64,000 nt of DNA from Gammaproteobacteria bacterium CG11_big_fil_rev_8_21_14_0_20_46_22 (GTDB lineage: Bacteria > Pseudomonadota > Gammaproteobacteria > UBA12402): contig PCWT01000048.1 in assembly GCA_002796245.1 (NCBI GenBank), positions 71,858 to 135,857 on the forward strand, in the 5' to 3' direction. The first letter of the stretch is position 1. Each line of letters starts with the position of its first letter. The position numbers and the translations under genes were made by a program. Of the stretch, positions 2,725-61,876 are shown in pieces. The notes below the pieces were generated by a model. The model saw only the letters and a program-made list of their open reading frames with translations. It was not told the DNA's origin and searched no databases.

Positions 2725-3195
2725 ATGCAGATTAATCTAACCCTCATTGGACAAATGATTACCTTCGGGATCTTCATTTGGTTCACAATGAAATACATTT
2801 GGCCACCGCTGATCAAGGCTATTCACGATCGCCAAGCGCGTATCGCAGAAGGCTTATCAGCCGCTGATAAAGGCCAAAAAGAGCTTGAGTTGGCAAAGCA
2901 CCGCTCTGTAAAGCTTTTACAAGAAGCGAAGCTCGAAGCTTCCCAGCTGATTGAAAAAGCGAACAAGCGCTCGAATGAAATTTTGGAAGAAGCGAAAGAA
3001 AAATCGCGCATCGAAAGCCAAAATATCATTGAGAACGCGAAAAAAGACGTGGCTCAAATGCAGGCACAGGCCAAAGAAGTCTTGCGTCAAGATGTGGTTA
3101 ATTTGTCCGTCTTGGGCGCGCAAAAAATTCTTGAGCGCGAAGTGGATGCAACGGCGCACAGCCAAATGCTGAAAACGCTTTCGGAGCAGCTTTAA
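2725..3195 (+). CDS. atpF: F0F1 ATP synthase subunit b.
   Basis: 156-aa protein with an N-terminal TM segment and a long charged coiled-coil, in operon position. Confidence 0.9.
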   Translation: MQINLTLIGQMITFGIFIWFTMKYIWPPLIKAIHDRQARIAEGLSAADKGQKELELAKHRSVKLLQEAKLEASQLIEKANKRSNEILEEAKEKSRIESQNIIENAKKDVAQMQAQAKEVLRQDVVNLSVLGAQKILEREVDATAHSQMLKTLSEQL

Positions 3196-8086: not shown

Positions 8087-9433
8087 ATGGATTTAAGCAC
8101 CGAAAATAATCTACTCGCAAGGCTCGATCGCTTGCCTATTTGGCCCTATTCTCGCGGCGTCTTGCTCACTATAGGCCTCGGCTTTTTTTTCGCCTTCTTT
8201 GATATCATCACGATTGGTCTGGCCATTCCGGTTTTGGTCCAGCAGTTCCATGTTAGTTTGTCGCTGGTTTTGTGGTGTATCAGCAGCAGCTTGATCGGTT
8301 ACATTGTTGGCTCTTTGTTTGACAGTGTTTTGTCGGATTTTTTCGGTCGACGTCTGGCTTTGATTTTATCCATGTTGTTTTTCAGTGTGGGCTCAATATT
8401 GTCAGCCTTTAGCCCGAATATATATTTTTTAATCGCCATGCGTTTTATTATTGGCATGGGCATTGGTTCAGAAATTGCGAATGTGACGACCTACTTGGGC
8501 GAGCTATCGCCAGCCAGCATTCGAGGCAAAATGACCAGTGTGGCTGTGGCACTGGGCTTTTTAGGTTTTGCCGTGGTGCCTTTTGTTGGTCTTGCTTTAA
8601 TTCCTCATTACGTTTGGGGCTGGCGTGTGGTGTTTGCACTGGGTGGCTTGGGCGCACTGGTCGTCATGTTTTGTCGACGGTTTGTTCCACAATCGATACG
8701 CTGGTTGGTTTCGCATAGCAAGCTTGAACAAGCACGTGTGGAGCTTGAGGCGCTGGAGGCAAGAGTTGTATCACGGATAAAAAAAGCATTGCCGCCGATT
8801 GCAGCGTCAGAAGGCTTTGCGCCCTCTTCGTATAAAGATTTATTCAAACCGGCGCAGTTTAAAACGATACTGTTTTTTAGCGCGATTTGGTTTTTTTACT
8901 ATATCGGTAATTATGCTTGGCTAACCTTGGATACCAAGCTTTTTTTGCTGGGTGGTTTTGACCTGCACAATAGTTTGCTATTGGTGTCGGTATCTTCCCT
9001 CGGCTTTATTTTGGGCTCACTGTTTGCGATCTTTTTCAGTGATTGTTTCGAGCGAAAATACACGATTTTTGTTTCGGCTATCGTATGGGCTCTTTGTTTG
9101 CTCGCGATTGCTTGGTGGCCGAGCTTGTGGCTGATTATGGTTTTGGGTTGTTTGGCTGCGATCACTATTTCAATACTTATCCCACTGCTCTACACCCTAA
9201 CCGGCGAGAGCTTTCCAACGGCATGCCGCGCCACAGGTATTTCAGTAACCGATGGTGTAGGTCATTTGGGGGGCGCGTTTTGCGGGCAAATTATTTTTGC
9301 GGTGTATGATTATACGAAAGCCTCTGGGCACGGCGTGAGCTTTGCGTTTACGGCGATGGCTATCACAGGCTTAATCACGGCGATTATGGTGCTGTTTGGT
9401 TTGCGCATGACACGGCAAAGCTTGCAGCAGTAA
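8087..9433 (+). CDS. MFS transporter (12 TM).
   Basis: 448-aa polytopic protein with MFS-like loop motifs (GRRLALI, R-rich loops). Confidence 0.8.
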   Translation: MDLSTENNLLARLDRLPIWPYSRGVLLTIGLGFFFAFFDIITIGLAIPVLVQQFHVSLSLVLWCISSSLIGYIVGSLFDSVLSDFFGRRLALILSMLFFSVGSILSAFSPNIYFLIAMRFIIGMGIGSEIANVTTYLGELSPASIRGKMTSVAVALGFLGFAVVPFVGLALIPHYVWGWRVVFALGGLGALVVMFCRRFVPQSIRWLVSHSKLEQARVELEALEARVVSRIKKALPPIAASEGFAPSSYKDLFKPAQFKTILFFSAIWFFYYIGNYAWLTLDTKLFLLGGFDLHNSLLLVSVSSLGFILGSLFAIFFSDCFERKYTIFVSAIVWALCLLAIAWWPSLWLIMVLGCLAAITISILIPLLYTLTGESFPTACRATGISVTDGVGHLGGAFCGQIIFAVYDYTKASGHGVSFAFTAMAITGLITAIMVLFGLRMTRQSLQQ

Positions 9434-9439
9434 ACGGGC

Positions 9440-10579
9440 TTAAATTAATTTTTCAAGCGAGCGGAGAGCCATTTCAACAGGTAGAGCGCGAATATTGTCG
9501 ATGACTTTTTCTTGAGTGCCCTGGTAGACTAAAAAGCATTCTGCTTCAGGATAGTCGGCATGAAAGGCTTTTAGCCCCTTTAAGTCGTTGTTATCGAAAC
9601 GATCGCGGTGCTTAATTTCAAAAGCCTTAAAGCCGTTCTCGCCATATAGAACAATGTCGACCTCTTGGCCCGTGTGGGCTCGCCAGTAATAGAAATCATA
9701 TTGTTTATCAGAATAAGCATTGATCGCTCTAAGCTCTTGCAAAAATAAGCCTTCTAAAGCGGGGCCACTGATTTCAGATTCGCTATCCAAAGGTCCGCGA
9801 GGGCGGATTTGTTGATAAATTCCTGCGTCGAAAAAATAAAACTTAGGGTGTTTTGCAAGTTTACGTTTTGCTCTACGTGTAAAAGCAGGCAGGCGATAGG
9901 CAATGAGCAAATCTTCTAATATGTTGAAGTAGTTTGAAACCACCTTTTGATCCATGCCTATTTCACGAGCAATAGAAGATAGGTTTAGCTGCTCTCCGTG
10001 AGAAAAGCTTGCGATTTCTAAAAAACGATGAAACGATTGTATATTTCGTGTTAAGCCCTCTTGTAAAACTTCTTCTCGTAGATAGTTGTCCACATAACTT
10101 GCCAAAAATTTATTGGGCTCTTTTGTTGAAATCACTTTAGGTAATTGCCCATACCGTAAGCTGTGAGATAAGTTAAAGTCATCCTCGAGCTCAATAGCGG
10201 TTAAGGGGTGCATGCTTAGACCAAATGCTCGGCCCGCCAAAAGATTAACGCCCTTTTTTCTTAGGCTTCTTGCGCTAGATCCGGTCAGTATAAAGCGTCG
10301 CTTATGGTGTTCGATTTGGCGGTGAACCTCATCTAATAGTGCGGGAATTTTTTGAACCTCATCGATAATGATCCAGTTATTTTTTTTGTGATCGATATAG
10401 GTGGATAAGCGAGAAGGTTGAGACGATAGTTCTAGATAGACGGCTTGATCCAGTAAATCGATATAGATAGCGTCTTGAAAGTGCGCTCTTAGCCAGGTGG
10501 TTTTGCCCGTTCCTCGTGGGCCGAAAAGGAAGTAACTATTCTCGGCATGGTAATCGATGTGCAGAAGGCGTTTGTACAT
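9440..10579 (-). CDS. AAA+ ATPase of the AAA_14/DUF4143 ('archaeal-ATPase-like') family.
   Basis: Walker A GPRGTGKT and Walker B IIDEVQ, with a DUF4143-type C-terminal half. Confidence 0.8.
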   Translation of the reverse strand: MYKRLLHIDYHAENSYFLFGPRGTGKTTWLRAHFQDAIYIDLLDQAVYLELSSQPSRLSTYIDHKKNNWIIIDEVQKIPALLDEVHRQIEHHKRRFILTGSSARSLRKKGVNLLAGRAFGLSMHPLTAIELEDDFNLSHSLRYGQLPKVISTKEPNKFLASYVDNYLREEVLQEGLTRNIQSFHRFLEIASFSHGEQLNLSSIAREIGMDQKVVSNYFNILEDLLIAYRLPAFTRRAKRKLAKHPKFYFFDAGIYQQIRPRGPLDSESEISGPALEGLFLQELRAINAYSDKQYDFYYWRAHTGQEVDIVLYGENGFKAFEIKHRDRFDNNDLKGLKAFHADYPEAECFLVYQGTQEKVIDNIRALPVEMALRSLEKLI

Positions 10580-11783: not shown

Positions 11784-13109
11784 ATGAGTACAGCGTATCA
11801 TGTCATCAAGGACCCTGTGCACGGGTCTATGCAGTTCACGGATCAAGAAAATCAGTGGATCAAACCCTTTATCGATTCACCGAGCTTTCAACGCTTGCGA
11901 CATATCAAACAGCTAGGGATGGCCGACTGGATTTTTCCCGGTGCGGTACATACTCGTTTTAATCATGGATTGGGCTGCTCGTATGTGGCTAACCAAATCG
12001 CAAATAAACTCGGTCTGAGTGATTCTGATCGTCAGTTGGTCACAATAGCGGGTCTTTTGCACGATGTGGGCCATGGTCCCTTTTCGCATGCTTTTGAGTA
12101 TATTTTTAAGCACCAGTGGATCAAGCATGAAGATTGGACGCCGCTGTTTTTAAATGATTACCTGCTCCCCGATTTTCTGGAAAAATTTAACGAGCGCAAT
12201 CCATCGCTGCCTCTAAGTGAATCACGGTTTAGCATCATTAAAAACTTGATCATGCACAAAGAGTCTCATCATAAATTATTGGCAGATATCGTCTCATCAC
12301 AGATGGATGCCGATCGTTTGGATTATCTTTTGCGCGACAGCCACTTTTGTGGCGTGAAATACGGCCACTATGATTTGCGATGGTTGCTACATTGTTTAAC
12401 GATTGTTGAAAGCCAGGAAGGCCAGCGTTTGGGCGTGAGCCAAAAAGGCATTGGGGCCGTTGAGCAATATTTGATGGCAAGGCGATTAATGCTACGTAAT
12501 GTCTACTTAAATGGCAAAAAACATGCTGCAGAATTCCAGCTAAGCTTGTTTTTAAGTCATTTAGCGAAAGCCGTGGATGATAAAGCGCTGATTGGACCTT
12601 TTGCCGAGCGCAGTCTCATTAAATTTTTGGTGAAAGTGCGTGAGTTTAATCACAATGTGAGTGAGCATAATTTAGAGACACTCCGGTCACAGTTTTTGCA
12701 AGGCCAGTATGGCTTGTATAAAAAACTCTGTGATTACGATGTCTTTGCAATGATTCGTCACTTCTCAAGCTTAGACAATGATATTCCTTTGGTCCAAATT
12801 GCTAAACGCTTGCAGCATAGGCAGTTGCCGAAAATTGTGATGCTAGACCACGACAAGCTTGAGCGAGCAAAAGAGTTAATTGAAACCCTTAAGGTGGAAC
12901 CTTGGCGTTTGCGCTTATTAGAGTTGCCGCATGAGGCTTATCAGCAAGACAAAGACCCCATTTTGGTGATGGATAAACATGGCGCTACGCGTCATTTGGA
13001 AGAAGATTCTCTCATTATTAGCGGCTTATCCAACCGTAAAGAAAGCTTGTTAATGTTGTGCATTGATGCAAGTTTATTTGACCACAAAAAAGTAAAACCT
13101 TTTTTTTAG
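11784..13109 (+). CDS. HD-domain dNTP triphosphohydrolase-like protein (dGTPase/SAMHD1-like family).
   Basis: N-terminus IKDPVHG...F..L..I.QLG..., HxxxH...LLHDVGHGPFSH metal-binding HD motif, and DxD (MDADRLDYLLRD). Confidence 0.8.
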   Translation: MSTAYHVIKDPVHGSMQFTDQENQWIKPFIDSPSFQRLRHIKQLGMADWIFPGAVHTRFNHGLGCSYVANQIANKLGLSDSDRQLVTIAGLLHDVGHGPFSHAFEYIFKHQWIKHEDWTPLFLNDYLLPDFLEKFNERNPSLPLSESRFSIIKNLIMHKESHHKLLADIVSSQMDADRLDYLLRDSHFCGVKYGHYDLRWLLHCLTIVESQEGQRLGVSQKGIGAVEQYLMARRLMLRNVYLNGKKHAAEFQLSLFLSHLAKAVDDKALIGPFAERSLIKFLVKVREFNHNVSEHNLETLRSQFLQGQYGLYKKLCDYDVFAMIRHFSSLDNDIPLVQIAKRLQHRQLPKIVMLDHDKLERAKELIETLKVEPWRLRLLELPHEAYQQDKDPILVMDKHGATRHLEEDSLIISGLSNRKESLLMLCIDASLFDHKKVKPFF

Positions 13110-13306
13110 AGATGCTTGCTTCGCCCTTTTCTAGGGCGTATCTCTGAGAGGTATTGAGCTTGATTTTTCTTCTTTCCCTAGGCAAAATGCCCTAACTTGA
13201 TTAAAAGGATTCATGGTGTTTTACCCTCTTTGTCAATGACAAGCACTCAAATTACAGTGCCGCGTGCGCTGGGCTTTGTCATATTTAAACTCAGAGGATA
13301 TTTATC

Positions 13307-15115
13307 ATGTTAGACCTTAAACACATCGACGTTCAATTTTCAGATCACACGCTTTTTTCGGATGCTAATTTTACGCTTTATGCTGGCCAGAAATACGGCG
13401 TGGTTGGCCGAAATGGCGCGGGTAAGACCACATTTTTTTCATTGATACAGAAAACACTATCGCCTGATGGTGGTGAAGTGGTGTACAACGATCGCCTGCA
13501 TATCGCGAGCGTCACACAAGAAATCGATAGGCTCGACTTGCCCGCCATTGATTATGTGATCGAATCCTACCCTATTATTGGTAAGCTTTGGTTGGACATG
13601 AAAGCCTTTGAGCAATCGGAAGACTATGAAAAGCTCGCTGATGTGCACATGCAGTTGGCTGAACACAAAGCGTATGATATCGAAGCACTGGCCGCTAAGA
13701 TTTTGCACGGTCTGGGTTTTGCACAGGATGAGCTGCAGCAAACTGTTGGCGCTTTTTCCGGTGGTTGGCGTGTGCGTTTGAATTTGGCGCGCTGTTTGAT
13801 TCAGCCGGCTGAGTTAATGTTGCTGGATGAGCCAACCAACCATTTGGATATGGACGCGATCATTTGGTTACAAGACTGGTTGAAAAGCTATTCTGGCAGT
13901 TTAATGGTGATTTCACATGATCGTTATTTTTTGGATCAAGTCACGGAATACACGCTGGCCATCGAGCAGAAAAAACTGATTCCCTATAAAGGCGGCTACT
14001 CTCAGTATGAGCAAGAAAAAGTCTTGAAAGCTGAGCTTGCTGAAAAGCAAGCTAAAAAACAGGCTAAACAGCGCGAACATTTACAATCCTTTGTCGATCG
14101 TTTTCGTGCGAAAGCCTCTAAAGCCAAACAGGCTCAAAGTCGCATGAAGATGTTGGAAAAACTGCCAACCATTGCCTTAGCGCAAGCCGACTCCCCCTAC
14201 CGCATACAGTTTTTTGAAAGTGAGGCCTTAAGTAACCCGGTGCTTAAATTGGAAAACTTTAGCTTCGCTTATGATGAGGCCCCTGTGTTTAATAAAGCGA
14301 ACTTTGGTTTGAATCAAGGTGATCGCTTAGGTTTGCTGGGGTTAAACGGTGCTGGTAAATCAACACTTGTAAAACTCATGGCTGCTCAATTGCAAGCACA
14401 ACGCGGCGAAAGAATTCAAAGTGCTAAGCTTAACATTGGGTATTTCGCGCAGCACCAAGTGGAGCATTTAAAATTAGAAGAAAGCGCTTATCAACATTTA
14501 CAGCGCTTGGCGCCTGGCAAAACAGCCTCGGAGCTTAGAGGTTATTTAGGCGGCTTTCATTTCAGTGGCGATAAAGCACTGCAAAAGGTTGAGAGCTTTT
14601 CAGGCGGCGAAAAAGCGCGCTTAGCACTCGCCTTAATTATTTGGCAACGCCCTAACCTCTTGTTACTCGATGAGCCGACCAACCATTTAGACATGGATAT
14701 GCGCGAAGCGCTCACGATCGCTTTACAAGATTATGATGGCGTGCTGATTTTAGTCTCGCATGATCGTCATTTGCTAGAAGCCACGGTGGATCAATTTTAT
14801 TTAGTTGATGGTGGCCAGGTCGCACGCTTTGAAGGTGATTTGGATGACTATGCGAATTGGTCTAAACAACGCCGTGAGATTAAACCCAAATCATCGCCTA
14901 AACCCAACGCTAAAGCAGCGGTTGTCGACAGCAAAGCCATAGCGCGAATTGAAAAAGATATCGAAAAAGCCACAGATGCCCTGGCCAAGATTGATCAGGC
15001 CATGAGTGCTTTGGCGCAGGATGATTTTGACGCCATGGCCAAATTAGCCAAAGAGCGCAAAGCCCTTGAAAACCAACTGGCCAAGCTAGAAGAGGCCTGG
15101 CTTGAGGCGCAGTGA
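13307..15115 (+). CDS. ABC-F family ATPase (translation factor, Uup/YheS-like) with a C-terminal coiled-coil.
   Basis: Two ABC cassettes (GRNGAGKTT / GLNGAGKST, LSGG-like signatures, DEPTNHLD x2), no TM domain, and an Ala/Lys-rich tail. Confidence 0.9.
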   Translation: MLDLKHIDVQFSDHTLFSDANFTLYAGQKYGVVGRNGAGKTTFFSLIQKTLSPDGGEVVYNDRLHIASVTQEIDRLDLPAIDYVIESYPIIGKLWLDMKAFEQSEDYEKLADVHMQLAEHKAYDIEALAAKILHGLGFAQDELQQTVGAFSGGWRVRLNLARCLIQPAELMLLDEPTNHLDMDAIIWLQDWLKSYSGSLMVISHDRYFLDQVTEYTLAIEQKKLIPYKGGYSQYEQEKVLKAELAEKQAKKQAKQREHLQSFVDRFRAKASKAKQAQSRMKMLEKLPTIALAQADSPYRIQFFESEALSNPVLKLENFSFAYDEAPVFNKANFGLNQGDRLGLLGLNGAGKSTLVKLMAAQLQAQRGERIQSAKLNIGYFAQHQVEHLKLEESAYQHLQRLAPGKTASELRGYLGGFHFSGDKALQKVESFSGGEKARLALALIIWQRPNLLLLDEPTNHLDMDMREALTIALQDYDGVLILVSHDRHLLEATVDQFYLVDGGQVARFEGDLDDYANWSKQRREIKPKSSPKPNAKAAVVDSKAIARIEKDIEKATDALAKIDQAMSALAQDDFDAMAKLAKERKALENQLAKLEEAWLEAQ

Positions 15116-15121
15116 TTTTTT
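15098..15121. repeat. Left copy of a perfect 24-bp direct repeat, TGGCTTGAGGCGCAGTGATTTTTT. It covers the last codons and stop of the ABC-F gene. The right copy is at 17802-17825.
   Basis: Both copies were read base by base and are identical over 24 nt. The flanks diverge. Confidence 0.75.
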
Positions 15122-15323
15122 CTATCTTGCATCATGTTTGATCTAAAATTCTCTGCGCAAACAAAGCCGCAATCACTTGGACAAGCCAGCGCGGTTTTGC
15201 TTTAATAATACGCGCTTTTTAACTATCGGTTAGCACGCCAGCTATGTGTTATAGCCAACGCGATTTCAATCAAGGTTTATCATTATAGATAAAGCCTAAA
15301 TCACAGAATGGGGAATTTAGAAT

Positions 15324-16937
15324 ATGAGCCATAACCCAATTGAAATAAAGTTACCAAACAATCAATCCGTTATCACGGACAAGGGCTTGGTTATTGTTGG
15401 CGCCAATGGTAGTGGTAAAACTCGGCTGGGTACTTGGCTATATGCTCAGCACGCAAGCTCAGCACACCGTATTTCAGCTCAAAAAAGATTAGGGTTTTCA
15501 TCTGAGGTTTCCTCAACCCAAAAAGCAAGTGAAGACTTTAGCCGTAGCCATAAAGCGAATGCGTTTAACCCGACGAATATGCAGAGAGATTACGATCAGT
15601 TATTAGCTTGGTTATTTTCAGAAGAAAATGCTGCTTGTCGAGATTATCGTTTGCAATCCATAAGCGAAAAAAACAAAGTCAATCCTGTGCCGACAAAACT
15701 TGAGAGGATTAAGTCTATTTGGGAAGAAGTTTTACCTCACCGAAAATTAATTATTGGAAACCAATTTATTAAGGCAAAATCTAAGCATGCAGATGCCGAA
15801 GAATATTCAGCTTCAGAAATGAGTGATGGTGAACGGGTTATTTTTTATTTGATTGGTCACTGTCTTATCGCTAAACCGCAAGGCATTATTATTATCGATG
15901 AGCCTGAGATGCACTTGCACAAAGCGATTCAATCTACCCTATGGAATAAGATTGAGCGAGAACGTGCTGATTGTATTTTTGTTTATCTGACCCACGATGT
16001 CGCTTTTGCAGCTTCAAGGGCAGGTTTTACTAAGTTATGGCTTGAAAGCTACGATAGTAAAAATAATTGGCAGTTAACGCAGTTAGAGGAGTCACAAGAA
16101 CTTCCAGAAGAGCTTTTGCTGGAGTTATACGGTAGTCGAAGAAAAATTTTATTAATCGAAGGAATTTCTGGCTCCAATGAATCACAGTTTTACCAAAACC
16201 TCTTTGAGGATTTTTTGATAAAACCCTGTGGCAGTTGTGAAAATGTTATTTCATATGTTAAAGCGCTGAAAAATAATACTGAATTTCATCATGAAAAAGT
16301 GTATGGTCTGATTGACAGGGATAGGCGAACGGATGAAGAAGTAGAAGCTTTAAAAGAAAATAATATTTTTACACTCGAGGTTGCTGAGTTTGAAAACTTA
16401 TTTGCAACTCCAGAGATATTGAAAATTGTTGCCGATAGGCAAGCGCATGATGCTGAAAAAAAAGCAGAAGAGGTTAAGGCATTTGTTTTTGATGAATTTA
16501 ATAAAGAGCTTGATGCTCAGATTCAATTGCATGTGCAGCAAGAAATCAAATGGCGGTTAAATGGATTGGATTTATCAAAGCTAAAAGACAGTAACTCGCT
16601 CGCTGATTTAATTAATACTAACCTCGACACTGACGATATAAAGAAAGAATTAACAGCAGCATTTGAAAAAATACGCGATAATAGCGACTACACATTTCTC
16701 CTAAAAAAATACAACAGGAAAACCATTGCCTCACGAATAGGTGCTATTTTTGGCCTGAAGACTGACGAGCTTCCTAACTTTGTTGTTCGATTATCTAATC
16801 AGAACGATTTCCAAAAAAACCTTAGAAACGCTGTGTTATTCTATTTGCCACCAAAGTTTAATGATTTGCTCACGGACAAGTCAAGCGAGCAAGCTACGAA
16901 TCCAGTCGAAGATGTTAATGAAGTGGAGCCAGCATGA
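15324..16937 (+). CDS. OLD-family / fused PARIS (AriA-AriB)-like protein: N-terminal ABC ATPase plus a C-terminal Toprim/DUF4435-like domain.
   Basis: Walker A GANGSGKT; ABC signature MSDGER; Walker B IIIIDEPEMHLH; H-loop LTHD. The C-terminal half has ILLIEG...FY and GLIDRD (Toprim E / DxD). The gene is AT-rich. Confidence 0.7.
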   Translation: MSHNPIEIKLPNNQSVITDKGLVIVGANGSGKTRLGTWLYAQHASSAHRISAQKRLGFSSEVSSTQKASEDFSRSHKANAFNPTNMQRDYDQLLAWLFSEENAACRDYRLQSISEKNKVNPVPTKLERIKSIWEEVLPHRKLIIGNQFIKAKSKHADAEEYSASEMSDGERVIFYLIGHCLIAKPQGIIIIDEPEMHLHKAIQSTLWNKIERERADCIFVYLTHDVAFAASRAGFTKLWLESYDSKNNWQLTQLEESQELPEELLLELYGSRRKILLIEGISGSNESQFYQNLFEDFLIKPCGSCENVISYVKALKNNTEFHHEKVYGLIDRDRRTDEEVEALKENNIFTLEVAEFENLFATPEILKIVADRQAHDAEKKAEEVKAFVFDEFNKELDAQIQLHVQQEIKWRLNGLDLSKLKDSNSLADLINTNLDTDDIKKELTAAFEKIRDNSDYTFLLKKYNRKTIASRIGAIFGLKTDELPNFVVRLSNQNDFQKNLRNAVLFYLPPKFNDLLTDKSSEQATNPVEDVNEVEPA

Positions 16938-17758
16938 AAACTAATCTAGCTATTTTTGAAGATTACCAAATCCGTCGCATCTATGACGAGGAAGCTGAAA
17001 CTTGGTTCTTCTCGGTCGTGGATATTATTCAAGCACTGACCCAACAGCCGGATTATCAAGCCGCCAGAAATTATTGGAAGGTATTGAAAAATAGGCTAAA
17101 AAAAGAGGAAAGTGAAGCGGTTACAAATTGTAACCAGTTGAAAATGACGGCTGAAGATGGCAAAGCTAGATTAACAGATGTCGCTAATGCTGAAACACTT
17201 TTACGTCTAGTCCAATCTGTCCCCAGCCCTAAAGCCGAGCCAATCAAGCTATGGCTGGCAAAAGTGGGTTATGAGCGGATGCAAGAAATGGCTGATCCCG
17301 CAAGGTCTCTTGATCGGGCGCGCGAAACCTGGCAAAAACATGGCCGCAGTGAGAAATGGATTCAGCAGCGCATGATGGGTCAAGAAACGCGCAGTAAATT
17401 GACGGATTATTGGAAGGAGCATGAGGTTAGCGAAGCTAAAGAGTTCGCCATTCTGACTAACATTATTCACCAAGAATGGTCGGGTATTAGTGTTAAGGCG
17501 CATAAGAATTTAAAAGGCTTGAAAGCGGAAAACTTACGCGATCATATGAGCGAAGCAGAGCTGATCTTTACGGCCCTGGCGGAGTTTTCAACACGGCAAA
17601 TTGCAGAAAGTACGGAGGCCACAGGAATGGAAGAAAACAAGGTGGCCAGTAAAAAGGGGGGTGGTATTGCCAAAAAAGCTAAGTTAGAGCTGGAACATAA
17701 AACCAAAAAGAAGGTGGTCTCAAAAGAAAACTATCTGCCCTCAAAAGGTAAGAGGTAA
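16934..17758 (+). CDS. DinD-like / Bro-N domain protein (274 aa). Its start overlaps the upstream ATPase stop as ATGA.
   Basis: Bro-N N-terminus (FEDYQIRRIYDEEAETWFFSVVDIIQAL) and DinD-like central and C-terminal regions. Translationally coupled to the ATPase gene. Confidence 0.75.
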   Translation: MKTNLAIFEDYQIRRIYDEEAETWFFSVVDIIQALTQQPDYQAARNYWKVLKNRLKKEESEAVTNCNQLKMTAEDGKARLTDVANAETLLRLVQSVPSPKAEPIKLWLAKVGYERMQEMADPARSLDRARETWQKHGRSEKWIQQRMMGQETRSKLTDYWKEHEVSEAKEFAILTNIIHQEWSGISVKAHKNLKGLKAENLRDHMSEAELIFTALAEFSTRQIAESTEATGMEENKVASKKGGGIAKKAKLELEHKTKKKVVSKENYLPSKGKR

Positions 17759-17801
17759 GTTTGGGGGCGTTGCCCGCGAAGTTAATTCTCTTTGCGACAA
17801 T

Positions 17802-17825
17802 TGGCTTGAGGCGCAGTGATTTTTT
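17802..17825. repeat. Right copy of the 24-bp direct repeat (see 15098-15121). It marks the 3' boundary of the ATPase–DinD cassette.
   Basis: Identical 24-mer. Confidence 0.75.
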
Positions 17826-17856
17826 ATAGGCTATACTCGAACTTTTCTAACTTTGA

Positions 17857-18616
17857 TTGTCTTCGGGGCTTCTGGTGAATGCTGAATTTAGTGACTATAT
17901 TGTTTATGTTGATGAAAGTGGCGACCACAATTTGGAGCGCATTAATCCAGAGTATCCTCTGTTTGTATTAGCGTTTTGTATTTTTGAGAAAAAAAACGTA
18001 CGTAAATCAAATTACTTCGAGTATTCAATCATTCAAGTTTAAGCAATTTAGCCATGATATGGTTGTTTTGCATGAACATGAAATTCGAAAAGCTGAAAAT
18101 GCATTTTCAATGCTTGTTAATTCAGAGAAACGGCATGATTTTATGACTCACCTGAATGGACTAATTGAAGAAGCACCCTTTACTATCGTAAGCACAGTGA
18201 TTGAGAAAAATCGCTTGCGTGAGCGATATTCAGAACCAGCAAACCCATACCATTTGGCTTTAGGTTTTGGTCTAGAAAGAGTCTTTAGTTTTTTGAAAGA
18301 GAGGGGGCAAGACAAGCTTAAAACGCATATTATCTTTGAGTGCCGCGGTAAAAAAGAAGACAAAGATTTAGAGCTAGAGTTTCGGCGTGTTTGTGATGGA
18401 AATAATCAATGGGGCAAGCTGCCTTTTGAGATAATTTTAGCAGATAAAAAGACGAACTCATGTGGATTACAGCTAGCTGATCTTATTGCTCGCCCTGTTG
18501 GTCGTTCTGTGCTTGATTCGCAAAAAAATAATAGAGCATATTCTTTGATAGAGAAGAAGATGTATCGTAGCCAGCAGGGAAAACTAAAGGGTTATGGATT
18601 AAAAACCTTCCCTTAA
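17857..18616 (+). pseudogene. DUF3800-family gene split by a +1 frameshift at an A8 homopolymer (~17988-17996). The two ORFs are 17857..18042 and 17984..18616.
   Basis: The N-terminal ORF has the DUF3800 hallmark YVDESGD. The C-terminal ORF has GLQLADLIARPV. The join falls at gagaaaaaaaacg. Confidence 0.65.
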
Positions 18617-18842
18617 AAAGCGAAAAGCCTCGGTCTTCACCGAGGCATAGACGCCGATCGGGATTCCCCAATCCACTTGTCAACATTATGGCTAACTTGG
18701 AGAAATAATCAATAAAAAGCCGCATTTTTATACAAACCAATGCGGGCTGAAGGGTGGATAACGAGCCGTTTGGTTCTTGCCCGAAAGGCCAATTTCGGCT
18801 ACTCTCTGCGGCTGATATAGGTAAGGTATTCAAGGGGATTTC

Positions 18843-20213
18843 ATGGGGCTTTCAGTGGTCATTTTAGCAGCAGGACGCGGCACGCGAATGAAATCTGAAG
18901 TGCCCAAGGTTTTGCACACCATCGCAGGCCTACCCATGCTTACCCATGTGATCAATACGGCCAAAGCCTGTGAGGCGTCTGAGATTTTTGTCATCTATGG
19001 TCATGGTGGTCAGCAAGTCCAAGAGACTCTGGCTGCTCAAAAAGTCACTTGGGTGCACCAGAAACAAACGCTGGGTACCGGCCATGCTGTCGCTCAAGCC
19101 TTACCCCACCTAAAAGCAACGGACCAAGTCTTGGTGCTCTTGGGCGATGTGCCCATGATTTCCAAAGAAACGATTACCCGTTTGCGAGAGCGCACGCCCA
19201 AAGATGCGATTGGTTGGTTAACCGCACACGTGAAAAACCCCGCAGGTTTTGGCCGCATTGTGCGTGATAGTGATAACAACCCCGTGCAAATCGTTGAAGA
19301 AAAAGACGCAAGCGATTTACAAAAAACGATTGATGAAATCAACACCGGTATTTGCCTGGTTCCGGCAAAATATTTAAAAGACTGGCTGCCTAAACTTAAG
19401 CGAAACAATTCTCAAAAAGAATATTACCTCACTGATATTTTTTCGGTGGCGGTTCAACATGGTGTGAGCTTGGTTACGGTCTCGCCAGAGTCTTTGATTG
19501 ATGTTCAAGGCGTGAACGATCGCATACAGCAAGCGCAATTAGAGCGCGCCTACCAAGCCCGTATCGCTGAAGACTTGATGCGACAAGGTGCCACTTTATT
19601 AAGTCCGGATCGTATCGATGTTAGGGGTCGTTTAACGATTGCCAATGATGTCAAAATTGATGTCAATGCTATTTTTGAAGGCGAGGTAACATTGGGCGCC
19701 CATTGTTATATTGGTCCGAATGTGTACTTAAAGAACACTGTGGTCGGCAAAAACGTCGTGATCAAAGCCAATAGTGTGATTGAAGATGCCAACATTGCTG
19801 ATGATTGCGAAGTGGGACCCTTCGCACGGATTCGCCCGGGCACAAAATTGGCTAGGGGTGCAAAGATCGGTAACTTTGTTGAAACCAAAAACGCAGACAT
19901 TGGCGCGGGCTCAAAAGTCAGCCATTTAAGTTATATCGGTGATGCTAAGCTTGGAAAAGCGGTGAATGTGGGTGCAGGTACAATCACTTGCAATTACGAT
20001 GGCGCGAATAAACATCAGACCACGTTAGGTGATGATGTGTTTATTGGCAGTAATACCGCATTGGTAGCGCCTGTTAAAGTGGGTAAAGGTGCAACGGTCG
20101 GTGCGGGTTCTGTGATTACAAAAGATGTGTCAGCCAATGAGCTTGCGTTAACACGCGCCAAACAAACAAATATTAAAGGCTGGAAAAGGCCTAAGAAAAA
20201 ACTAAAGGGTTAA
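18843..20213 (+). CDS. glmU: Bifunctional N-acetylglucosamine-1-phosphate uridyltransferase / glucosamine-1-phosphate acetyltransferase.
   Basis: LAAGRGTRM nucleotidyltransferase motif and C-terminal hexapeptide repeats. Confidence 0.95.
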   Translation: MGLSVVILAAGRGTRMKSEVPKVLHTIAGLPMLTHVINTAKACEASEIFVIYGHGGQQVQETLAAQKVTWVHQKQTLGTGHAVAQALPHLKATDQVLVLLGDVPMISKETITRLRERTPKDAIGWLTAHVKNPAGFGRIVRDSDNNPVQIVEEKDASDLQKTIDEINTGICLVPAKYLKDWLPKLKRNNSQKEYYLTDIFSVAVQHGVSLVTVSPESLIDVQGVNDRIQQAQLERAYQARIAEDLMRQGATLLSPDRIDVRGRLTIANDVKIDVNAIFEGEVTLGAHCYIGPNVYLKNTVVGKNVVIKANSVIEDANIADDCEVGPFARIRPGTKLARGAKIGNFVETKNADIGAGSKVSHLSYIGDAKLGKAVNVGAGTITCNYDGANKHQTTLGDDVFIGSNTALVAPVKVGKGATVGAGSVITKDVSANELALTRAKQTNIKGWKRPKKKLKG

Positions 20214-22214: not shown

Positions 22215-23417
22215 ATGATCACAACGCTTTTAGAGATACAAAACACCCTCCTTTTAGGCTTTAAAGGCAGAAAGCATTATTCACGGGCGCTTTACAACAA
22301 AATTAACCTTAATAACCGTTTTGTGGGTTTGGTGGGTGCACGGGGTGTGGGTAAAACCACCTACCTGCTTCAGTTAGTGCAGAATAATGAAGCAAGCCTC
22401 TACGTCTCGGCGGATAATGTTTTTTTTCTTGAGCACAGTTTGCTTGAGTTGGTTGACACACTTTATAAAGAAACTGATATTCGAACGTTGTGTATCGATG
22501 AAATTCATAAATACCCGAATTGGAATCAAGAGCTCAAAAATATCTACGATACTTATTTGGAATTTAAACTTATTTTTACAGGCAGCTCAGCCATTGACCT
22601 TGCCCGCAGCAAGTATGATTTATCACGACGAGTGGTTTTATATTCCTTTTATGGCTTTTCATTTCGAGAGTATTTGGCGTTTAATGATATTGCTAAAATT
22701 GATACCGTGACGCTGAATAATATTTTAGAAAAACCACAAGAGCTTCTCGGTGAAATATCCCTGATCAATCCCATAAGACTGTTTAAGGATTATTTGCGTT
22801 TTGGCTATTATCCTTTTTCAAATGATTTTTCACAGCGAGTCGATTTTTACCAAGCCATTCGCAATATTCATCAGAAAAGCATTTATGAAGATATTGGCAC
22901 AGCGCATCAGTTAAAAACGGGTACATTGCTGGTGCTTGAAAAATTATTTAAATATGTGGTTAACTCAGTGCCCGGTGAGCTGAGCGTGTATAAGGTTGCC
23001 AGTACGCTGGGCAAGGATTTTAAAAGCATATCGGAATATGTTCGTTACTTAGAGGAAGCAGGGCTTTTACGTTGTTTACGATCGAGTCAAGCAGGTAAAG
23101 GGCAATTAAAAAACCCAGAAAAATTATTGCCGGGCAACCCCAATATGGTTTATGCGGAGCTTATTAAAGAAAGCGCAGATATTTTAGGCAATATACGAGA
23201 AAGCTTTGTGCTATCACACTTACAGAATGCTGGCCTAGCAGTATTTTATCAAAAAACCGGCGATTTTTATGTTGAGGGCAAAACGCTAGAGATCGGTGGT
23301 AAAAATAAAACACGCCGTCAGATCAAAGGCGTCGAAGATGCCTATGTGTTATCTGACGATACGGTCACGGCATTTAAAAACACACTGCCTTTGTGGTTGC
23401 TAGGGTTCTTGTATTAA
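22215..23417 (+). CDS. AAA+ ATPase (AAA_14/DUF4143 family), a second copy of this family in the window.
   Basis: Walker A GARGVGKTT and Walker B CIDEIH. It sits at the glmS-downstream position where attTn7 lies in E. coli. Confidence 0.8.
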   Translation: MITTLLEIQNTLLLGFKGRKHYSRALYNKINLNNRFVGLVGARGVGKTTYLLQLVQNNEASLYVSADNVFFLEHSLLELVDTLYKETDIRTLCIDEIHKYPNWNQELKNIYDTYLEFKLIFTGSSAIDLARSKYDLSRRVVLYSFYGFSFREYLAFNDIAKIDTVTLNNILEKPQELLGEISLINPIRLFKDYLRFGYYPFSNDFSQRVDFYQAIRNIHQKSIYEDIGTAHQLKTGTLLVLEKLFKYVVNSVPGELSVYKVASTLGKDFKSISEYVRYLEEAGLLRCLRSSQAGKGQLKNPEKLLPGNPNMVYAELIKESADILGNIRESFVLSHLQNAGLAVFYQKTGDFYVEGKTLEIGGKNKTRRQIKGVEDAYVLSDDTVTAFKNTLPLWLLGFLY

Positions 23418-54820: not shown

Positions 54821-55224
54821 GGGGGCGTCATTGGTTTCGACGTGATTTACAAGACCCAAAGTGCATGCCGAGTGTGTAAGCTACTCGCTAAACAAGCTGC
54901 AATCGTTATAATTGCAAACGATACTACTTTTGCTGCTGAGGACGCTATCGCTGCCTAACCGGCAGAGGAGAAATCCTCTCTCGTCGTACTAAACCTACGA
55001 CACAGCCCAGCGACCGCGTGAGCCCGCGCGTGTGGAAGCTGGTAATTTAGCGGGATCGCGACGTGGAGTGTCTAGCAACATCGTCGTTAAATGTAACCGC
55101 TAGGCTTGCCTTGTGTGATCCTGTCGGTCGGAGCGCATAAGGTGACACAAAAGACCGCTCTAAGCATGTAGACCTTTGTGTTGCGATTTTGCGGACGCGG
55201 GTTCAACTCCCGCCGCCTCCACCA
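54821..55224 (+). ncRNA. ssrA: tmRNA (SsrA).
   Basis: 5' end GGGGGCGUCAUUGGUUUCGACG. Tag reading frame GCA AAC GAT ... GCT GCC TAA (ANDTTFAAEDAIAA). tRNA-like 3' end GGGUUCAACUCCCGCCGCCUCCACCA. Confidence 0.85.
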
Positions 55225-55301
55225 ACGCAACCGCTTGATTTATTTGGACTTTCTTATCAACTCAAAAGGCCGCGGGAAATTGGCGGGAAACAACTGAAAA
55301 C

Positions 55302-56462
55302 TTACCACTGATTAACAGGCCGATAACCTCCAAAAATATTTTGATCCGGAATCCACCGCGTATAGTACCGTGCTGTTGTCAACATTGTTTCATGCCCCAT
55401 CTGCCCAGAAACCCATGGAAAATACTCGCCACCCGATACCATCATCGACGCAAATGTATGACGTGTTTGATATAAATTACGATATTCAATATTGGTTATC
55501 TTGAATAATGGCAGCCATGCCTGTTTCCGCATTTCGCTCGCATCTTTCCATGGTCGCTTTTTTTGAGGGTTGAAAAATATATAGGATTGCTGCCAGAGCG
55601 TATACTGCTTTTGTGCTTTTAAAGCACTTAAAGCAGGACGTAAAAGCTGTACGGTTCTCCTGCTCCTCTTCGTTTTAGTAGGCCTTACTTTACCTTGAAC
55701 AACAATACGTCTGATGTAAATAAAACCATTTTCTAAATCAACGTCCTCCCAGCGCAAACCAACCAATTCTGCGGTACGCAAGCCAGTATAGAAAGCAAAT
55801 TGAAATAGATTTTTAATTTGCCCTTCTGCAGTCGCTAACAACTTATAAATTTCAGCTTGTGTAAACGGATTAACTTCATAAGTTGATTTAATTCTCGTTA
55901 AAAGTTTAAGATCAATAAGCGTAAAAGGATTAACCGTAAGATAGCCTCGGATCATAGCCTCTGCAACAACGTACCTCAGTGGCGTCAATATATTAAGGAT
56001 AGTTTTTCGCTGACACTTAAATTTATTCAACCAATCCCAAATAATACCTGCGCTGAGTTCAGTTACAGGTAACTTTCCAAAAGCCAGTCTTAAATGTTTA
56101 TTACATGTCCTTTGATAGCGATCATAAGTATTGTCGCTTACACGTTGTTTTATCCTTTCTAAATACAAATCTATTAACTCATTGACAAGCGTTGCCTTTG
56201 GCACATGTCCAAACCTAATTGCATTTTTTGAATAAGGAAAAAAATCAGTATAATTAAAGTCGCCAAAAGCAATCGCTTTTAAAAGCTCTTTTCTCAAGCG
56301 AATGGCTTTTTTGATATTTCTTGTATTAACTGTAAAATTCAGTTTTTCACGGCAGTACTTATATCGATAACGAAATGTTATCCGTAAACTCTTTTTTCCT
56401 GTTTTGGAAATTCTAACGTAAACACCCGTTGCAACTCGAGTTTCAGTTTCTTTCACACCCAT
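55302..56462 (-). CDS. int: Tyrosine recombinase (P4-type integrase).
   Basis: C-terminal catalytic region with R...HxxR...Y (TRHTFAS...ARYYTRW). Confidence 0.9.
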   Translation of the reverse strand: MGVKETETRVATGVYVRISKTGKKSLRITFRYRYKYCREKLNFTVNTRNIKKAIRLRKELLKAIAFGDFNYTDFFPYSKNAIRFGHVPKATLVNELIDLYLERIKQRVSDNTYDRYQRTCNKHLRLAFGKLPVTELSAGIIWDWLNKFKCQRKTILNILTPLRYVVAEAMIRGYLTVNPFTLIDLKLLTRIKSTYEVNPFTQAEIYKLLATAEGQIKNLFQFAFYTGLRTAELVGLRWEDVDLENGFIYIRRIVVQGKVRPTKTKRSRRTVQLLRPALSALKAQKQYTLWQQSYIFFNPQKKRPWKDASEMRKQAWLPLFKITNIEYRNLYQTRHTFASMMVSGGEYFPWVSGQMGHETMLTTARYYTRWIPDQNIFGGYRPVNQW

Positions 56463-56527
56463 GCTTTTATCTCCTATATAAATTAAGCTTTAATAACATA
56501 ACCTAAATTTAATCAAGGAGTACAAAA

Positions 56528-56740
56528 ATGTTAGAAACAGATAAAAAACCAACAAGATTATTGAGGCTCAAAGAAGTAAAACATCGCACAGGGCTGTCAC
56601 GCTCATCTATATACCTTATGATATCAGAAAATCAGTTCCCCCGACAAATTCAATTAAGTGGCAACCGCAGTGTTGCATGGGTTGAGCAAGAGATTGAAGA
56701 GTGGATACAAATGAGAATTAAGCTTAGCAACCACACATAA
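56528..56740 (+). CDS. alpA: AlpA-family transcriptional regulator/excisionase.
   Basis: LLRLKEVKHRTGLSRSSIYLMISENQFP HTH typical of AlpA. Confidence 0.8.
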   Translation: MLETDKKPTRLLRLKEVKHRTGLSRSSIYLMISENQFPRQIQLSGNRSVAWVEQEIEEWIQMRIKLSNHT

Positions 56741-56792
56741 ACCTAATGCTTGTCATAAATGTTGCCTAACTCATTATAAATAAAAGTGGCTA

Positions 56793-60345: not shown

Positions 60346-60848
60346 TTCTATTTCCCTAAATACCGTTGCTCACTTACCTTAATAACAATTTTAAGCTTCG
60401 GCTCTAAAAGTTCTTTTTGCCCGACCAGTTAGGCGTTTGTTTGGAAGGCTTAAAGGAGAGCTTAATATACCATTAAAAAACATATATCATACCAGCATCG
60501 CAATCTTGTCCCAAGTCACACCATAAGCCTAACATAAGGCCATGCTCGATAATATTTTAGCTAGAAAATCACTAGTGAGCCTTGAAATACCCAAAAGCTA
60601 ACTATTTCAAGTCTCAAAACGCCTAAATCTGTGCACCAAGCAGTAACTAGGTATAACAAAAGACAACAAACCATTTCTCTTTAACTTTAATTGATTTTCA
60701 TTTTTTAGTTATTGAAAAGACCGCAGGAAATCAATGAAGGAAGATATTTTTTCCGATGATTCACTGGCAGGCAGTTACAATAAAGGTAAACCTGTTATTA
60801 ACTAGCTACTATAAAAACGGTTTGCGCCAATGCAAATAAACCAAAGAT

Positions 60849-60873
60849 ACTTATAGTCTGTAGACATAAAGTC
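60849..60873 (+). promoter_or_regulatory. C-box operator for the controller protein: ACTTATAGTC-tgta-GACATAAAGTC, the C.PvuII-type GACTnnnAGTC tandem.
   Basis: Read directly. It is 25 nt upstream of the C gene ATG. Confidence 0.55.
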
Positions 60874-60897
60874 ATCTTTTCGATACTAATAAGCAAC

Positions 60898-61149
60898 ATG
60901 AAGCATCAAATTTTACAGAATCATCCTGACAAGTTGCAAAAAATATTTGCTCAAAATGTTCGTATTGAACGAATAAAAATGAATATGACACAAGAAGAGC
61001 TTGCTGATATATGTGGCTATCATCGAACATATATTGGCTCCATAGAAAGAGGAGAGAGAAACGTTACTCTAGCAGCTATTGAGGCACTAGCTAAAGCATT
61101 TAAGGTCAAGCCATATCAGCTATTGGTAAGAGATAATGAACAAAATTAG
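60898..61149 (+). CDS. R-M controller (C) protein, XRE-family HTH.
   Basis: 83-aa HTH protein (MTQEELADICGYHRTYIGSIERGERN) overlapping the downstream REase gene. Confidence 0.8.
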   Translation: MKHQILQNHPDKLQKIFAQNVRIERIKMNMTQEELADICGYHRTYIGSIERGERNVTLAAIEALAKAFKVKPYQLLVRDNEQN

Positions 61150-61876
61150 CAAGCCAGATAACATGTCTCAAGAATTTTACGAGGCTTGTATAGCAGTTGA
61201 AGGCAAACGTGCACGCACCGTCATTAACCACATTCTTCAGAATGGCTTTATAACAACTGAAGAATTAAGTGATATCTATGCCTATGATCATCCGCCAAGA
61301 GCCGCTAGAGATGTAAGAGAAAATGGAATCCCGCTAAAAACCTACAAGGTAGTAAGCAAAAAAACAGGGCGGAAGATTGCAGCCTATAAATTTGATTTTA
61401 GTGAAAAAACTAAAGGCAGAATTGGAGGCAGAAAAGCATTCTCTATACAATTTAAAAAAAAGCTAATTGAGAGATATGGATCATGCTCAGTTCTAACTAA
61501 CGAAAAGATTAACCCTCGATACTTACAAATAGATCATCGTATCCCCTATGAAGTGGCGGGCAACGACGCAAACGAAGATGTTGAGCATTATATGCTACTA
61601 GATGCTTCTGAACAACGCGCAAAAAGTTGGTCTTGTGAATCATGCGAAAACTTCCGCACAAACAAAGATAAAAATATCTGTGAAAATTGTTTTTGGGCAT
61701 ATCCGGAAAACTATTCTCATATTGCAATGAAACCAGAACGTCGTTTAGATATCTTGTGGTCTGGAGATAACTGCAAGCAATACGAACTACTAGTCACAGA
61801 AGCAAAAAAAGAAAACCAATCTCCACAATCACTTATTAAAAAATTACTAAAAGACAGTTTTTCTGACAGTAATTAG
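61136..61876 (+). CDS. Type II restriction endonuclease, HNH family, with Zn-ribbon cysteines.
   Basis: YLQIDHRIPYEVAGN HNH core and CESCENF...CENCFW motifs. It lies between the C gene and a convergent MTase. Confidence 0.7.
   Translation: MNKISKPDNMSQEFYEACIAVEGKRARTVINHILQNGFITTEELSDIYAYDHPPRAARDVRENGIPLKTYKVVSKKTGRKIAAYKFDFSEKTKGRIGGRKAFSIQFKKKLIERYGSCSVLTNEKINPRYLQIDHRIPYEVAGNDANEDVEHYMLLDASEQRAKSWSCESCENFRTNKDKNICENCFWAYPENYSHIAMKPERRLDILWSGDNCKQYELLVTEAKKENQSPQSLIKKLLKDSFSDSN

Follow-up and report, generated by a model that had tools for sequence, protein, structure and literature searches.

Analyses of a 64,000-nucleotide stretch of DNA (hereafter, the window) indicated that two defense-type genes lie in one operon between two copies of a perfect direct repeat, the first of which covers the 3' end of a housekeeping ABC-F gene. 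We consider it probable that these genes are autonomous and are carried on an integrated, integrase-less cassette resembling a CIME, an element type defined as keeping its att sites, having no recombination genes, measuring 1.2–13 kb and residing at the 3' ends of protein genes (PMC7563491). The parts of the cassette can all be assigned to a described family or to a list of candidates, and it is therefore made up of known kinds and is not a new system.

The target gene (13307..15115, + strand) encodes a YheS-like ABC-F protein of 602 aa, as identified by two Pfam ABC_tran matches, an ABC_tran_Xtn match and NCBIfam PRK10636 (621 bits). An exact search of the window found the 24-mer TGGCTTGAGGCGCAGTGATTTTTT twice on the + strand, at 15098..15121 (a putative attL-like core) and at 17802..17825 (a putative attR-like core), with the match extending beyond this core to 26 of 27 bases. 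The left copy comprises the last five ABC-F codons (W L E A Q) with the stop codon, 18 nt in all, followed by a T6 run, which places direct repeats at the 3' end of an intact target gene. No third copy was present in the window with up to three mismatches allowed, and there were no chance matches to the 24-mer in 100 dinucleotide-preserving shuffles. The perfect repeat at the ABC-F 3' end that had been reported in the original prediction was thus confirmed, and by analogy we regard it as a putative att site.

Exactly two ORFs lie between the repeat copies, at 15324-16937 (537 aa) and 16934-17758 (274 aa), and no other coding-strand ORF of the cassette reaches 60 aa; both were assigned to families. 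The two genes share an ATGA start/stop overlap (16934..16937, + strand), indicative of translational coupling, so that the ORF coordinates agreed with the claim of two exactly bracketed, overlapping genes. The cassette had also been described as AT-rich, which is true of the first gene (38% GC; GC3 33%) but not of the second, whose GC content of 44% falls within that of four neighboring host genes (43–48%). The remainder of the cassette consists of a non-coding leader on the + strand between the left repeat and the first gene (15122..15323) and a non-coding right end of 43 bp on the same strand between the second gene and the right repeat (17759..17801). Hairpins in the leader were weak and not significant (z = -1.1). 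Promoter-like sites over 14900-18900 numbered 9 against the 8.4 expected from shuffles, which is no excess, and none of the 9 was in the leader; terminator-like sites were in modest excess (8 found versus 4.4 ± 2.2 expected), with none at a cassette boundary.

No integrase, relaxase or other mobility gene was identified among the assigned ORFs of the cassette. The only integrase in the window, a tyrosine integrase (55302-56462), is situated ~37 kb away within a separate tmRNA (ssrA) genomic island with Gabija (55225-63079), which was recognized by this integrase and by a boundary repeat, an imperfect copy of the tmRNA 3' end (81% over 26 nt). The earlier statement that no integrase is nearby therefore holds locally. 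The island integrase was considered as the integrator of the cassette and rejected, as its att, which is the tmRNA 3' end, has no relation to the 24-mer.

The first gene, ariAB (15324..16937, + strand), is on sequence grounds a single-chain (fused) PARIS AriAB. Its 537-aa product consists of a compact ABC ATPase (approximately residues 1–255) and a DUF4435/Toprim nuclease domain (approximately residues 270–470), and it matched the PADLOC AriAB model PDLC02982 over model positions 36–565 of 570 (E 1.5e-142, 474 bits), as well as the PADLOC AriB model (E 1.2e-13). Pfam AAA_21 (42.6 bits) and DUF4435 (PF14491; 60.5 bits, cut-off 27, residues 287–467) both matched, and a failure of the C-terminal region to match Toprim/DUF4435 models, which would have counted against the fusion, did not occur. 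The Walker A (GANGSGKT) and Walker B (IIIIDEPE) motifs are intact and, with the signature motif also present, the protein has the ABC ATPase domain expected of fused PARIS. In addition, the Toprim acidic residues E279, D331 and D333 are invariant in 22 homologues. The nearest database relative is 68% identical.

The original prediction had allowed for either a class 1 OLD or a PARIS-like protein, and of these the PARIS assignment stood and the OLD assignment did not. A class 1 OLD-family nuclease or Gabija GajA-like protein would have the same domain logic of ABC ATPase plus Toprim, and the GajA and ATPase-Toprim models of PADLOC matched weakly (E 1e-7 to 1e-11). The AF2 model (pLDDT 82.7) had an ABC ATPase fold; structure searches with it could not tell PARIS apart from other ABC ATPase defense proteins, with GajA structures among the matches; the E. 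coli B185 AriA and AriB chains had no sequence match in the PDB when the whole protein, the family profile or the Toprim half was used as query. However, no non-PARIS model exceeded 42 bits (the best, ATPase-Toprim_I-B, scored 41.9), versus 474 bits over the full length for AriAB. Moreover, the Toprim part matched DUF4435 and not OLD-like_TOPRIM, the model matched by the real GajA of the window (58594-60345). We consider an OLD or GajA identity for this gene to be highly improbable.

The second gene (16934..17758, + strand) encodes a DinD-family Bro-N protein of 274 aa corresponding to the PADLOC candidate PDC-S13. Pfam Bro-N (PF02498) matched residues 13–110 at 34.8 bits, above the cut-off of 25.6, comparable to its match in E. 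coli DinD (32.4 bits, residues 10–105). The PDC-S13 model PDLC04920 matched the protein at E 7.6e-119 and E. coli DinD at 2.2e-16, the latter being matched by the sister model PDLC04919 at 2.4e-121. Direct comparison of the two proteins gave ~30% identity by BLASTP over 99 C-terminal residues (E 4e-4) and a weak hhalign result (probability 18%). Together, these data agreed with the claim of a DinD/Bro-N-like second gene. The AF2 model of this protein was poor (pLDDT 52) because the homologues used were all at least 76% identical to the query. Members of its subfamily are 80–88% identical in amino acid sequence across phyla with near-saturated synonymous sites, an unusual degree of conservation, and clustering of the wider family at 50% identity gives 9,416 representatives, most of which are about 270–300 aa long.

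Two expectations attached to the DinD likeness did not survive. DNA-damage inducibility had been implied, but no LexA box (CTGT-N8-ACAG, up to one mismatch) was found in 15098-17825 or upstream of the cassette, the nearest being at 14116 within the ABC-F gene, and hence the "DNA-damage-inducible" label does not transfer to this gene. SOS control of the cassette was rejected for the same reason. SOS (LexA) regulation is a trait of the E. coli dinD gene and is not defining for the DinD family. A DinD-like partner for an OLD/PARIS-type nuclease had also been presented as new, but the gene is already listed as PDC-S13, a guilt-by-embedding prediction from the preprint of Payne et al. 2024 (bioRxiv 10.1101/2024.01.29.577857), in which PDC systems are predicted candidates; the basis in this case was embedding in RM, BREX and DISARM systems. 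Our literature searches found no paper that names PDC-S13 or describes a link between DinD and PARIS.

To place the two genes in context, we compared the loci at which each occurs. The pair was seen in three lineages, namely the window and the loci L095 and L117, with the ATGA overlap in all three. L095 is 68% identical to the window in AriAB and 86% in the DinD-like protein, and third-position identities are 0.60 and 0.58 for the two genes, which is a similar synonymous divergence. In L117, an intact DinD-like gene follows an AriAB that has an internal deletion and contains stops. The window leader resembles the region upstream of this AriAB remnant over its last ~50 nt only, and the 43-bp right end had no similarity to regions downstream of DinD-like genes at other loci. 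Related AriAB/DinD-like modules adjoin tmRNA genes in L095 and L092.

Most AriAB and most DinD-like genes occur without each other. AriAB was found without a DinD-like partner at L094, where it stands alone in a defense island, at L096/L097, where it is part of a type I RM operon, and at L123. None of 20 other AriAB-type loci had an adjacent DinD-like gene, and none of 15 viral DinD-like loci had an adjacent AriAB. DinD-like genes follow hsdM with an ATGA overlap (L119-122), follow hsdR-hsdM (L112), precede a type III res gene (L102) or stand alone (L092, L093). The DinD-like gene had been put forward as a partner for a PARIS-type nuclease; with pairing in only three lineages, in one of which AriAB is decayed, with the other loci unpaired and with the same ATGA coupling to hsdM in another element, it appears not to be a partner dedicated to PARIS.

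A genuine two-component system, with the DinD-like protein as a regulator, antitoxin-like inhibitor or extra sensor that would replace the sequester-and-release control closed to a fused AriAB, is in our view unlikely. Some functional link may exist, given that the pair recurs with its ATGA coupling in three lineages at similar synonymous divergence. The decay of the nuclease gene beside an intact DinD-like gene in L117 is as in toxin-antitoxin pairs, and the window DinD-like sequence groups with those of the paired loci in a tree. Against this, a DinD-like gene is missing beside the remaining close homologues of AriAB that we looked at, which are 65%, 57% and 49% identical, and from 16 viral AriAB-type loci, and DinD-like genes at 80–88% identity sit behind hsdM, beside type III res or alone. 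Likewise, no plasmid was shared between the best 25 of 39 AriAB records and all 13 DinD-like records, no fusion of AriAB-plus-DinD length was present among the best 150 family representatives, and PADLOC handles PDC-S13 as a single-gene candidate.

The genomic neighborhood supported the interpretation that the operon was inserted. In the closest relative found (L098; ABC-F 67% identical, its C-terminus ...EEAWLQSV* aligning with ...EEAWLEAQ* in the window), the gene order is atpC-GT9-HD-ABCF-glmU-glmS, with 133 bp from ABC-F to glmU, and AriAB, the DinD-like gene and DUF3800 are all absent. As the ABC-F gene of L098 directly precedes glmU, these three are insertions in the window. The third is a DUF3800 pseudogene (17857..18616, + strand) with a frameshift at an A8 run (17989-17996), the ORFs 17857-18042 and 17984-18616 matching different parts of Pfam DUF3800, and its sequence is identical across all contigs of the species. 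A single insertion event does not suffice, because DUF3800 is also missing from L098 and lies outside the repeat. A further locus (L099) has a TraY/ParE pair and a DUF4143 gene downstream of ABC-F, and we read the region that follows this gene as a hotspot for accessory genes.

The claim of an insertion scar therefore stood in part: insertion is evident relative to L098 and the repeat is compatible with integration, but the precise empty site was not found. The suggested check for an empty site in relatives gave a locus without the cassette, although L098 is too distant to conserve the 24-mer and a single copy was not recovered. The cassette is present in all 17–21 contigs of the species, whose sequences agree to at least 99.98% over 13000-19000, and exact-protein look-ups returned only such clonal, cassette-bearing contigs. 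The genome occurs in samples that include SRR6240790, SRR6241617 and JGI 3300025850, 3300004209 and 3300025835. At least 80 loci in genome contigs matched the ABC-F protein; the matches listed were all at no more than 49% identity and included no syntenic locus, although closer genomes may exist beyond this list. The empty-site junction is predicted to read ...GAAGAGGCC-TGGCTTGAGGCGCAGTGATTTTTT-ATAGGCTATACTCG and the circle junction ...CTTTGCGACAAT-TGGCTTGAGGCGCAGTGATTTTTT-CTATCTTGCATC; a metagenome scan for the 24-mer returned one contig, a filled right junction, with neither an empty site nor a circular junction. No integrase-bearing element or parent ICE/IME sharing the 24-bp att was found.

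The repeat could have arisen by a RecA-level crossover of a circular fragment at ~24 bp, by duplication during replication or repair, or as a long, transposition-like target-site duplication. RecA-dependent recombination in E. coli reportedly needs about 24 bp of homology to be efficient, and the repeat is of about this length. The lack of an integrase nearby, of terminal inverted repeats at the cassette ends and of an obvious recombinase-type inverted core in the repeat also favors such origins, as does the finding of no flanking repeats around the other accessory insertions of the neighborhood. The absence of terminal inverted repeats led us to reject a transposon model, and known transposase target duplications are much shorter. 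A duplicated 3' end and stop codon that leave the gene intact are, however, the classic signature of 3'-end-targeting integrases, and the same signature occurs at the tmRNA gene in the window and in ICE, IME and CIME elements (PMC7563491). We consider a non-att origin somewhat unlikely and favor integration at an att-type site.

According to this favored reading, the 24-bp repeat would be the core that remained after a circular element had integrated in the Campbell manner and regenerated the ABC-F stop codon. The recombinase would have acted in trans or have been deleted afterwards, and the result would be a CIME-like state. E. coli PARIS is triggered by phage anti-restriction proteins and cleaves tRNA, resulting in translation arrest (PMC11464382). 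By homology, the ABC ATPase moiety of AriAB is expected to sense a phage-made trigger (an anti-restriction protein such as Ocr in the model system), upon which the fused Toprim nuclease would be switched on and cut host tRNA, leading to translation arrest and abortive infection. Since sensor and nuclease are covalently joined, activation would have to be conformational and could not proceed through AriB release. The DinD-like gene would be a self-sufficient "rider", comprising a Bro-N DNA-binding domain and a DinD-type C-terminal domain, that appears to lodge repeatedly, often with an ATGA overlap, behind hsdM, type III res and AriAB genes and to persist intact where AriAB decays. E. coli DinD is described as inhibiting RecA filaments (Uranga et al. 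2011, as cited in PMC4849656), and by analogy the substrate of the protein may be RecA-DNA or another nucleoprotein intermediate.

We also speculate, with little confidence, that DinD-family Bro-N (PDC-S13) proteins are a widespread, highly conserved rider that docks by translational coupling behind diverse defense genes and has become a co-component in the AriAB clade, for example by gating or backing up the fused PARIS nuclease and perhaps by sensing RecA-DNA or intermediates of phage replication; in that case, the cassette would represent a minimal mobile form of the two-gene system. If the DinD-like gene did modulate or complement AriAB, this would provide a function for DinD-type proteins and a means of control of single-chain PARIS. 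In any case, the locus, from an uncultured gammaproteobacterium of groundwater, offers a compact, natural and directly clonable fused-PARIS operon. With the other loci, it shows the DinD/PDC-S13 family, to which E. coli DinD belongs, recurring behind defense genes in translational coupling with them, and as a repeat-bounded cassette with no integrase it is a clean case for how small defense modules move between hotspots.

Compared with known systems, the first gene is like PARIS (PADLOC "AriAB"; DefenseFinder "PARIS_II_merge") in its AAA_21-type ABC ATPase and DUF4435/Toprim domains, here in one polypeptide, in its conserved catalytic motifs and in the occurrence of members in defense islands and inside type I RM operons. 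It differs in being followed by a translationally coupled DinD-like gene and, from E. coli PARIS, in that its parts are fused and AriB release is unusable. The second gene resembles E. coli DinD in its length of 274 aa, its N-terminal Bro-N and C-terminal domains and its match to the PDC-S13 model, but differs in its low, C-terminal identity and missing LexA box; as for other PDC-S13 members, which are embedded in RM operons, its defense role is that of a candidate. CIMEs were described in Firmicutes, whereas the cassette belongs to an uncultured gammaproteobacterium, and our searches gave neither a parent ICE/IME nor a tandem partner or cognate integrase for it. At 2.7 kb it is within the CIME size range, it carries only cargo with no integrase or mobilization genes, and its direct repeats keep intact the protein-coding housekeeping gene whose 3' end it occupies. 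The tmRNA island of the same window, unlike the cassette, retains a tyrosine integrase and has an imperfect repeat and an unrelated att, but it too has defense cargo and a boundary repeat that is a second copy of the 3' end of the gene targeted, as at ABC-F.

Scanning of the window with up to three mismatches allowed identified only two copies of TGGCTTGAGGCGCAGTGATTTTTT, at 15098-15121 and 17802-17825, and dinucleotide-preserving shuffles indicated that zero copies of this 24-mer would be expected by chance. When extended, the similarity of the two copies reached 26 of 27 bases. The left copy forms the end of the ABC-F gene, comprising the codons W-L-E-A-Q, the stop codon and a T6 run; this gene (13307-15115) encodes a 602-aa YheS-like protein with two ABC_tran domains and an ABC_tran_Xtn domain. 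Between the repeat copies are a 202-bp leader, the 537-aa AriAB ORF (15324-16937), a 274-aa DinD-like ORF (16934-17758) that shares an ATGA overlap with it, and a 43-bp tail. The original observation of a perfect 24-mer flanking two ATGA-overlapping genes was borne out, and its gene assignments were essentially right. Each gene falls in a catalogued family (fused PARIS and PDC-S13/DinD, respectively).

All contigs carrying the exact ABC-F or AriAB proteins of the host, an uncultured gammaproteobacterium, held the cassette and were at least 99.98% identical over positions 13000-19000. The closest relative found, L098 (ABC-F 67% identical), has a backbone, atpC-GT9-HD-ABCF-glmU-glmS, that matches the window, with just 133 bp separating ABC-F and glmU, and its ABC-F C-terminus reads ...EEAWLQSV* versus ...EEAWLEAQ* in the window. 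The short gap and the aligned C-terminus indicate that the 24-mer belongs natively to ABC-F and that three genes were inserted: AriAB, the DinD-like gene and a frameshifted DUF3800 gene (17857-18616). In the comparison with relatives that had been proposed, L098 lacks the cassette and all contigs of the species hold it. The repeat encloses the two-gene cassette only, with DUF3800 outside. In a more distant relative, the corresponding position downstream of ABC-F is occupied by a TraY/ParE pair and a DUF4143 gene, and this site is thus an accessory-gene hotspot.

The DUF3800 gene consists of two overlapping ORFs with a frameshift at an A8 run (17989-17996), is identical in sequence across all contigs of the species and has no counterpart in L098; the split marks either a pseudogene or a slippery site. 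Two AAA_14/DUF4143 ATPase genes (9440-10579, minus strand, and 22215-23417, plus strand) both match the PADLOC candidate PDC-S01. As L098 has no same-position counterparts of these two genes or of an MFS gene (8087-9433), the atp-glmUS neighbourhood has collected at least four accessory insertions; no flanking repeats were found around the others near the cassette. The HD-domain protein at 11784-13109 had a weak PADLOC dGTPase match (E 1.4e-11), and is more likely housekeeping than defence because its position is kept in L098. A 15-nt exact repeat, AAAACTAAAGGGTTA, at 18580-18594 near the DUF3800 3' end and 20198-20212 at the glmU 3' end, is probably due to chance (about 0.03 expected in the 7.5-kb region). 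Contigs from three independent assemblies (L006, L007 and L008; ENA, Logan and JGI) all start exactly at 15142, which is inside the cassette and 20 nt right of the left repeat copy. This common first base would fit a population in which a second sequence context exists left of 15142.

The AriAB/DinD-like pair was found three times, in the window and in the loci L095 and L117. Relative to the window, the L095 AriAB and DinD-like proteins are 68% and 86% identical and the ATGA overlap is kept. In L117 (2141-3354), an intact DinD-like gene with the overlap retained follows a decayed AriAB in which 39 N-terminal codons, including Walker A, are joined in frame to some 88 codons of the C-terminal end and an internal stop is present; this locus has lost the nuclease gene and retained the DinD-like gene. 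In a neighbour-joining tree the window DinD-like protein clustered with those of L095, L117 and a solitary copy, L092. Because synonymous divergence between the window and L095 is equal for both genes, this small clade probably inherited the pair from its ancestor.

Beyond this clade, each of the two genes occurs independently of the other. AriAB homologues at 65%, 57% and 49% identity occur alone in a defence island, in a short contig or within an hsdM-AriAB-hsdS-hsdR operon. The island around the solitary 65% homologue (L094) also has AAA_21/RloB, BrnT/BrnA and a NACHT protein, with a short Bro-N fragment (2931-3101; query residues ~41-99) some 3 kb upstream of that AriAB. None of 16 viral AriAB-type loci had an adjacent DinD-like gene, none of 15 viral DinD-like loci had AriAB, and no plasmid record was common to both proteins among the top 25 of 39 AriAB records and all 13 DinD-like records. 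DinD-like genes were observed ATGA-coupled to hsdM on an integrase/AlpA element (L119-122; 84% identity), behind hsdR-hsdM (L112), overlapping a type III res gene (L102), and between a histidine kinase and its response regulator (L093). No fusion of about AriAB-plus-DinD length was present in the best 150 of 9,416 DinD-like representatives. Based on these separate occurrences and the lack of fusions, we interpret the DinD-like gene as an autonomous module with a habit of riding behind defence genes. Its pairing with AriAB is genuine, though restricted to a small clade and probably not obligatory; weighing the overlap kept within the clade together with the separate occurrences beyond it, we consider a clade-specific functional link of the DinD-like protein to AriAB improbable.

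The call of the second gene as DinD/Bro-N-like was upheld by an N-terminal Bro-N domain (34.8 bits) and a match to the PDC-S13 model PDLC04920 (E 7.6e-119). E. coli K-12 DinD (NC_000913) is likewise 274 aa with Bro-N at its N-terminus, and it too matches PDC-S13 models, the sister model PDLC04919 at 2.4e-121 and PDLC04920 at 2.2e-16. Because BLASTP aligned the two proteins over just 99 C-terminal residues (30% identity, E 4e-4) and hhalign gave a weak match, while the PDC-S13 candidate is common to both, the window protein is a distant DinD-family member. PDC denotes a set of 145 "phage defence candidates", predictions only, whose proposed role comes from their embedding in BREX, DISARM or type I RM loci (bioRxiv 10.1101/2024.01.29.577857). 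E. coli DinD inhibits RecA filaments (Uranga 2011, as cited in PMC4849656). No LexA box was found within or before the cassette. E. coli DinD (L101, 5761-6582) also matched positions 6-267 of the 717-position type I specificity-subunit model PDLC03083 (E 3e-114), and on this basis DinD-like domains fused to HsdS proteins appear to exist, tying the family to type I restriction-modification.

The family comprises 9,416 representatives at 50% identity, mostly of about 270-300 aa. More than 100 homologues of the window protein, at 79-87% identity, were found in Legionellales, Planctomycetes, KSB1, Geobacterales and Chlamydiae. Among the genes from the window, L092, L093, L095, L117 and L119, the proteins are 80-88% identical across distant phyla, third codon positions are just 45-62% identical, and in each case GC3 follows that of the host; together, these values mean strong purifying selection on the subfamily rather than recent transfer. 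Such selection is unusually strong for a defence-island gene, and the DinD-like gene evolves about half as fast as its paired AriAB.

As had been noted, there is no integrase near the cassette; the nearest in the window, a tyrosine integrase (55302-56462, minus strand), belongs to a separate 7.9-kb island which, with its tmRNA gene (54821-55224), spans 54821-63079. This island carries Gabija GajB (56793-58607) and GajA (58594-60345), an unassigned ORF (61136-61876) and a D12-class Dam methylase (61900-62778). Its far boundary is an imperfect duplicate of the tmRNA 3' end (63054-63079; 81% over 26 nt), making it a textbook island duplicating the 3' end of its target. In L095 (2880-2906) 176 bp separate the module from the 3' end of a tmRNA, and in L092 (9545-9958) the solitary DinD-like gene and a tmRNA gene are about 2.7 kb apart. 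No integrase was seen at either, and from this proximity AriAB/DinD-like modules appear to be cargo of tmRNA-associated islands.

The 24-bp repeat is best explained as a scar left by the integration of a cassette that now has no integrase. The original reading of a recombination or target-site scar is compatible with the insertion relative to L098 and the duplication of the native ABC-F end. The cassette ends have no terminal inverted repeats. We favour, with some reserve, a Campbell-type integration at the ABC-F 3' end, whose recombinase would since have been lost or have acted in trans, based on the repeat and insertion evidence, the tmRNA-island parallel and the definition of a CIME. The main rival, in which short-homology or duplication mechanisms produced the repeat, we judge rather unlikely, setting the lack of a nearby integrase beside that same evidence. 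In the ICE/IME field, a CIME is a cargo-only element of 1.2-13 kb that lies between att-like repeats at a protein gene's 3' end (PMC7563491). The cassette resembles a CIME in being cargo-only, in having att-like repeats and in its position at a protein-gene 3' end.
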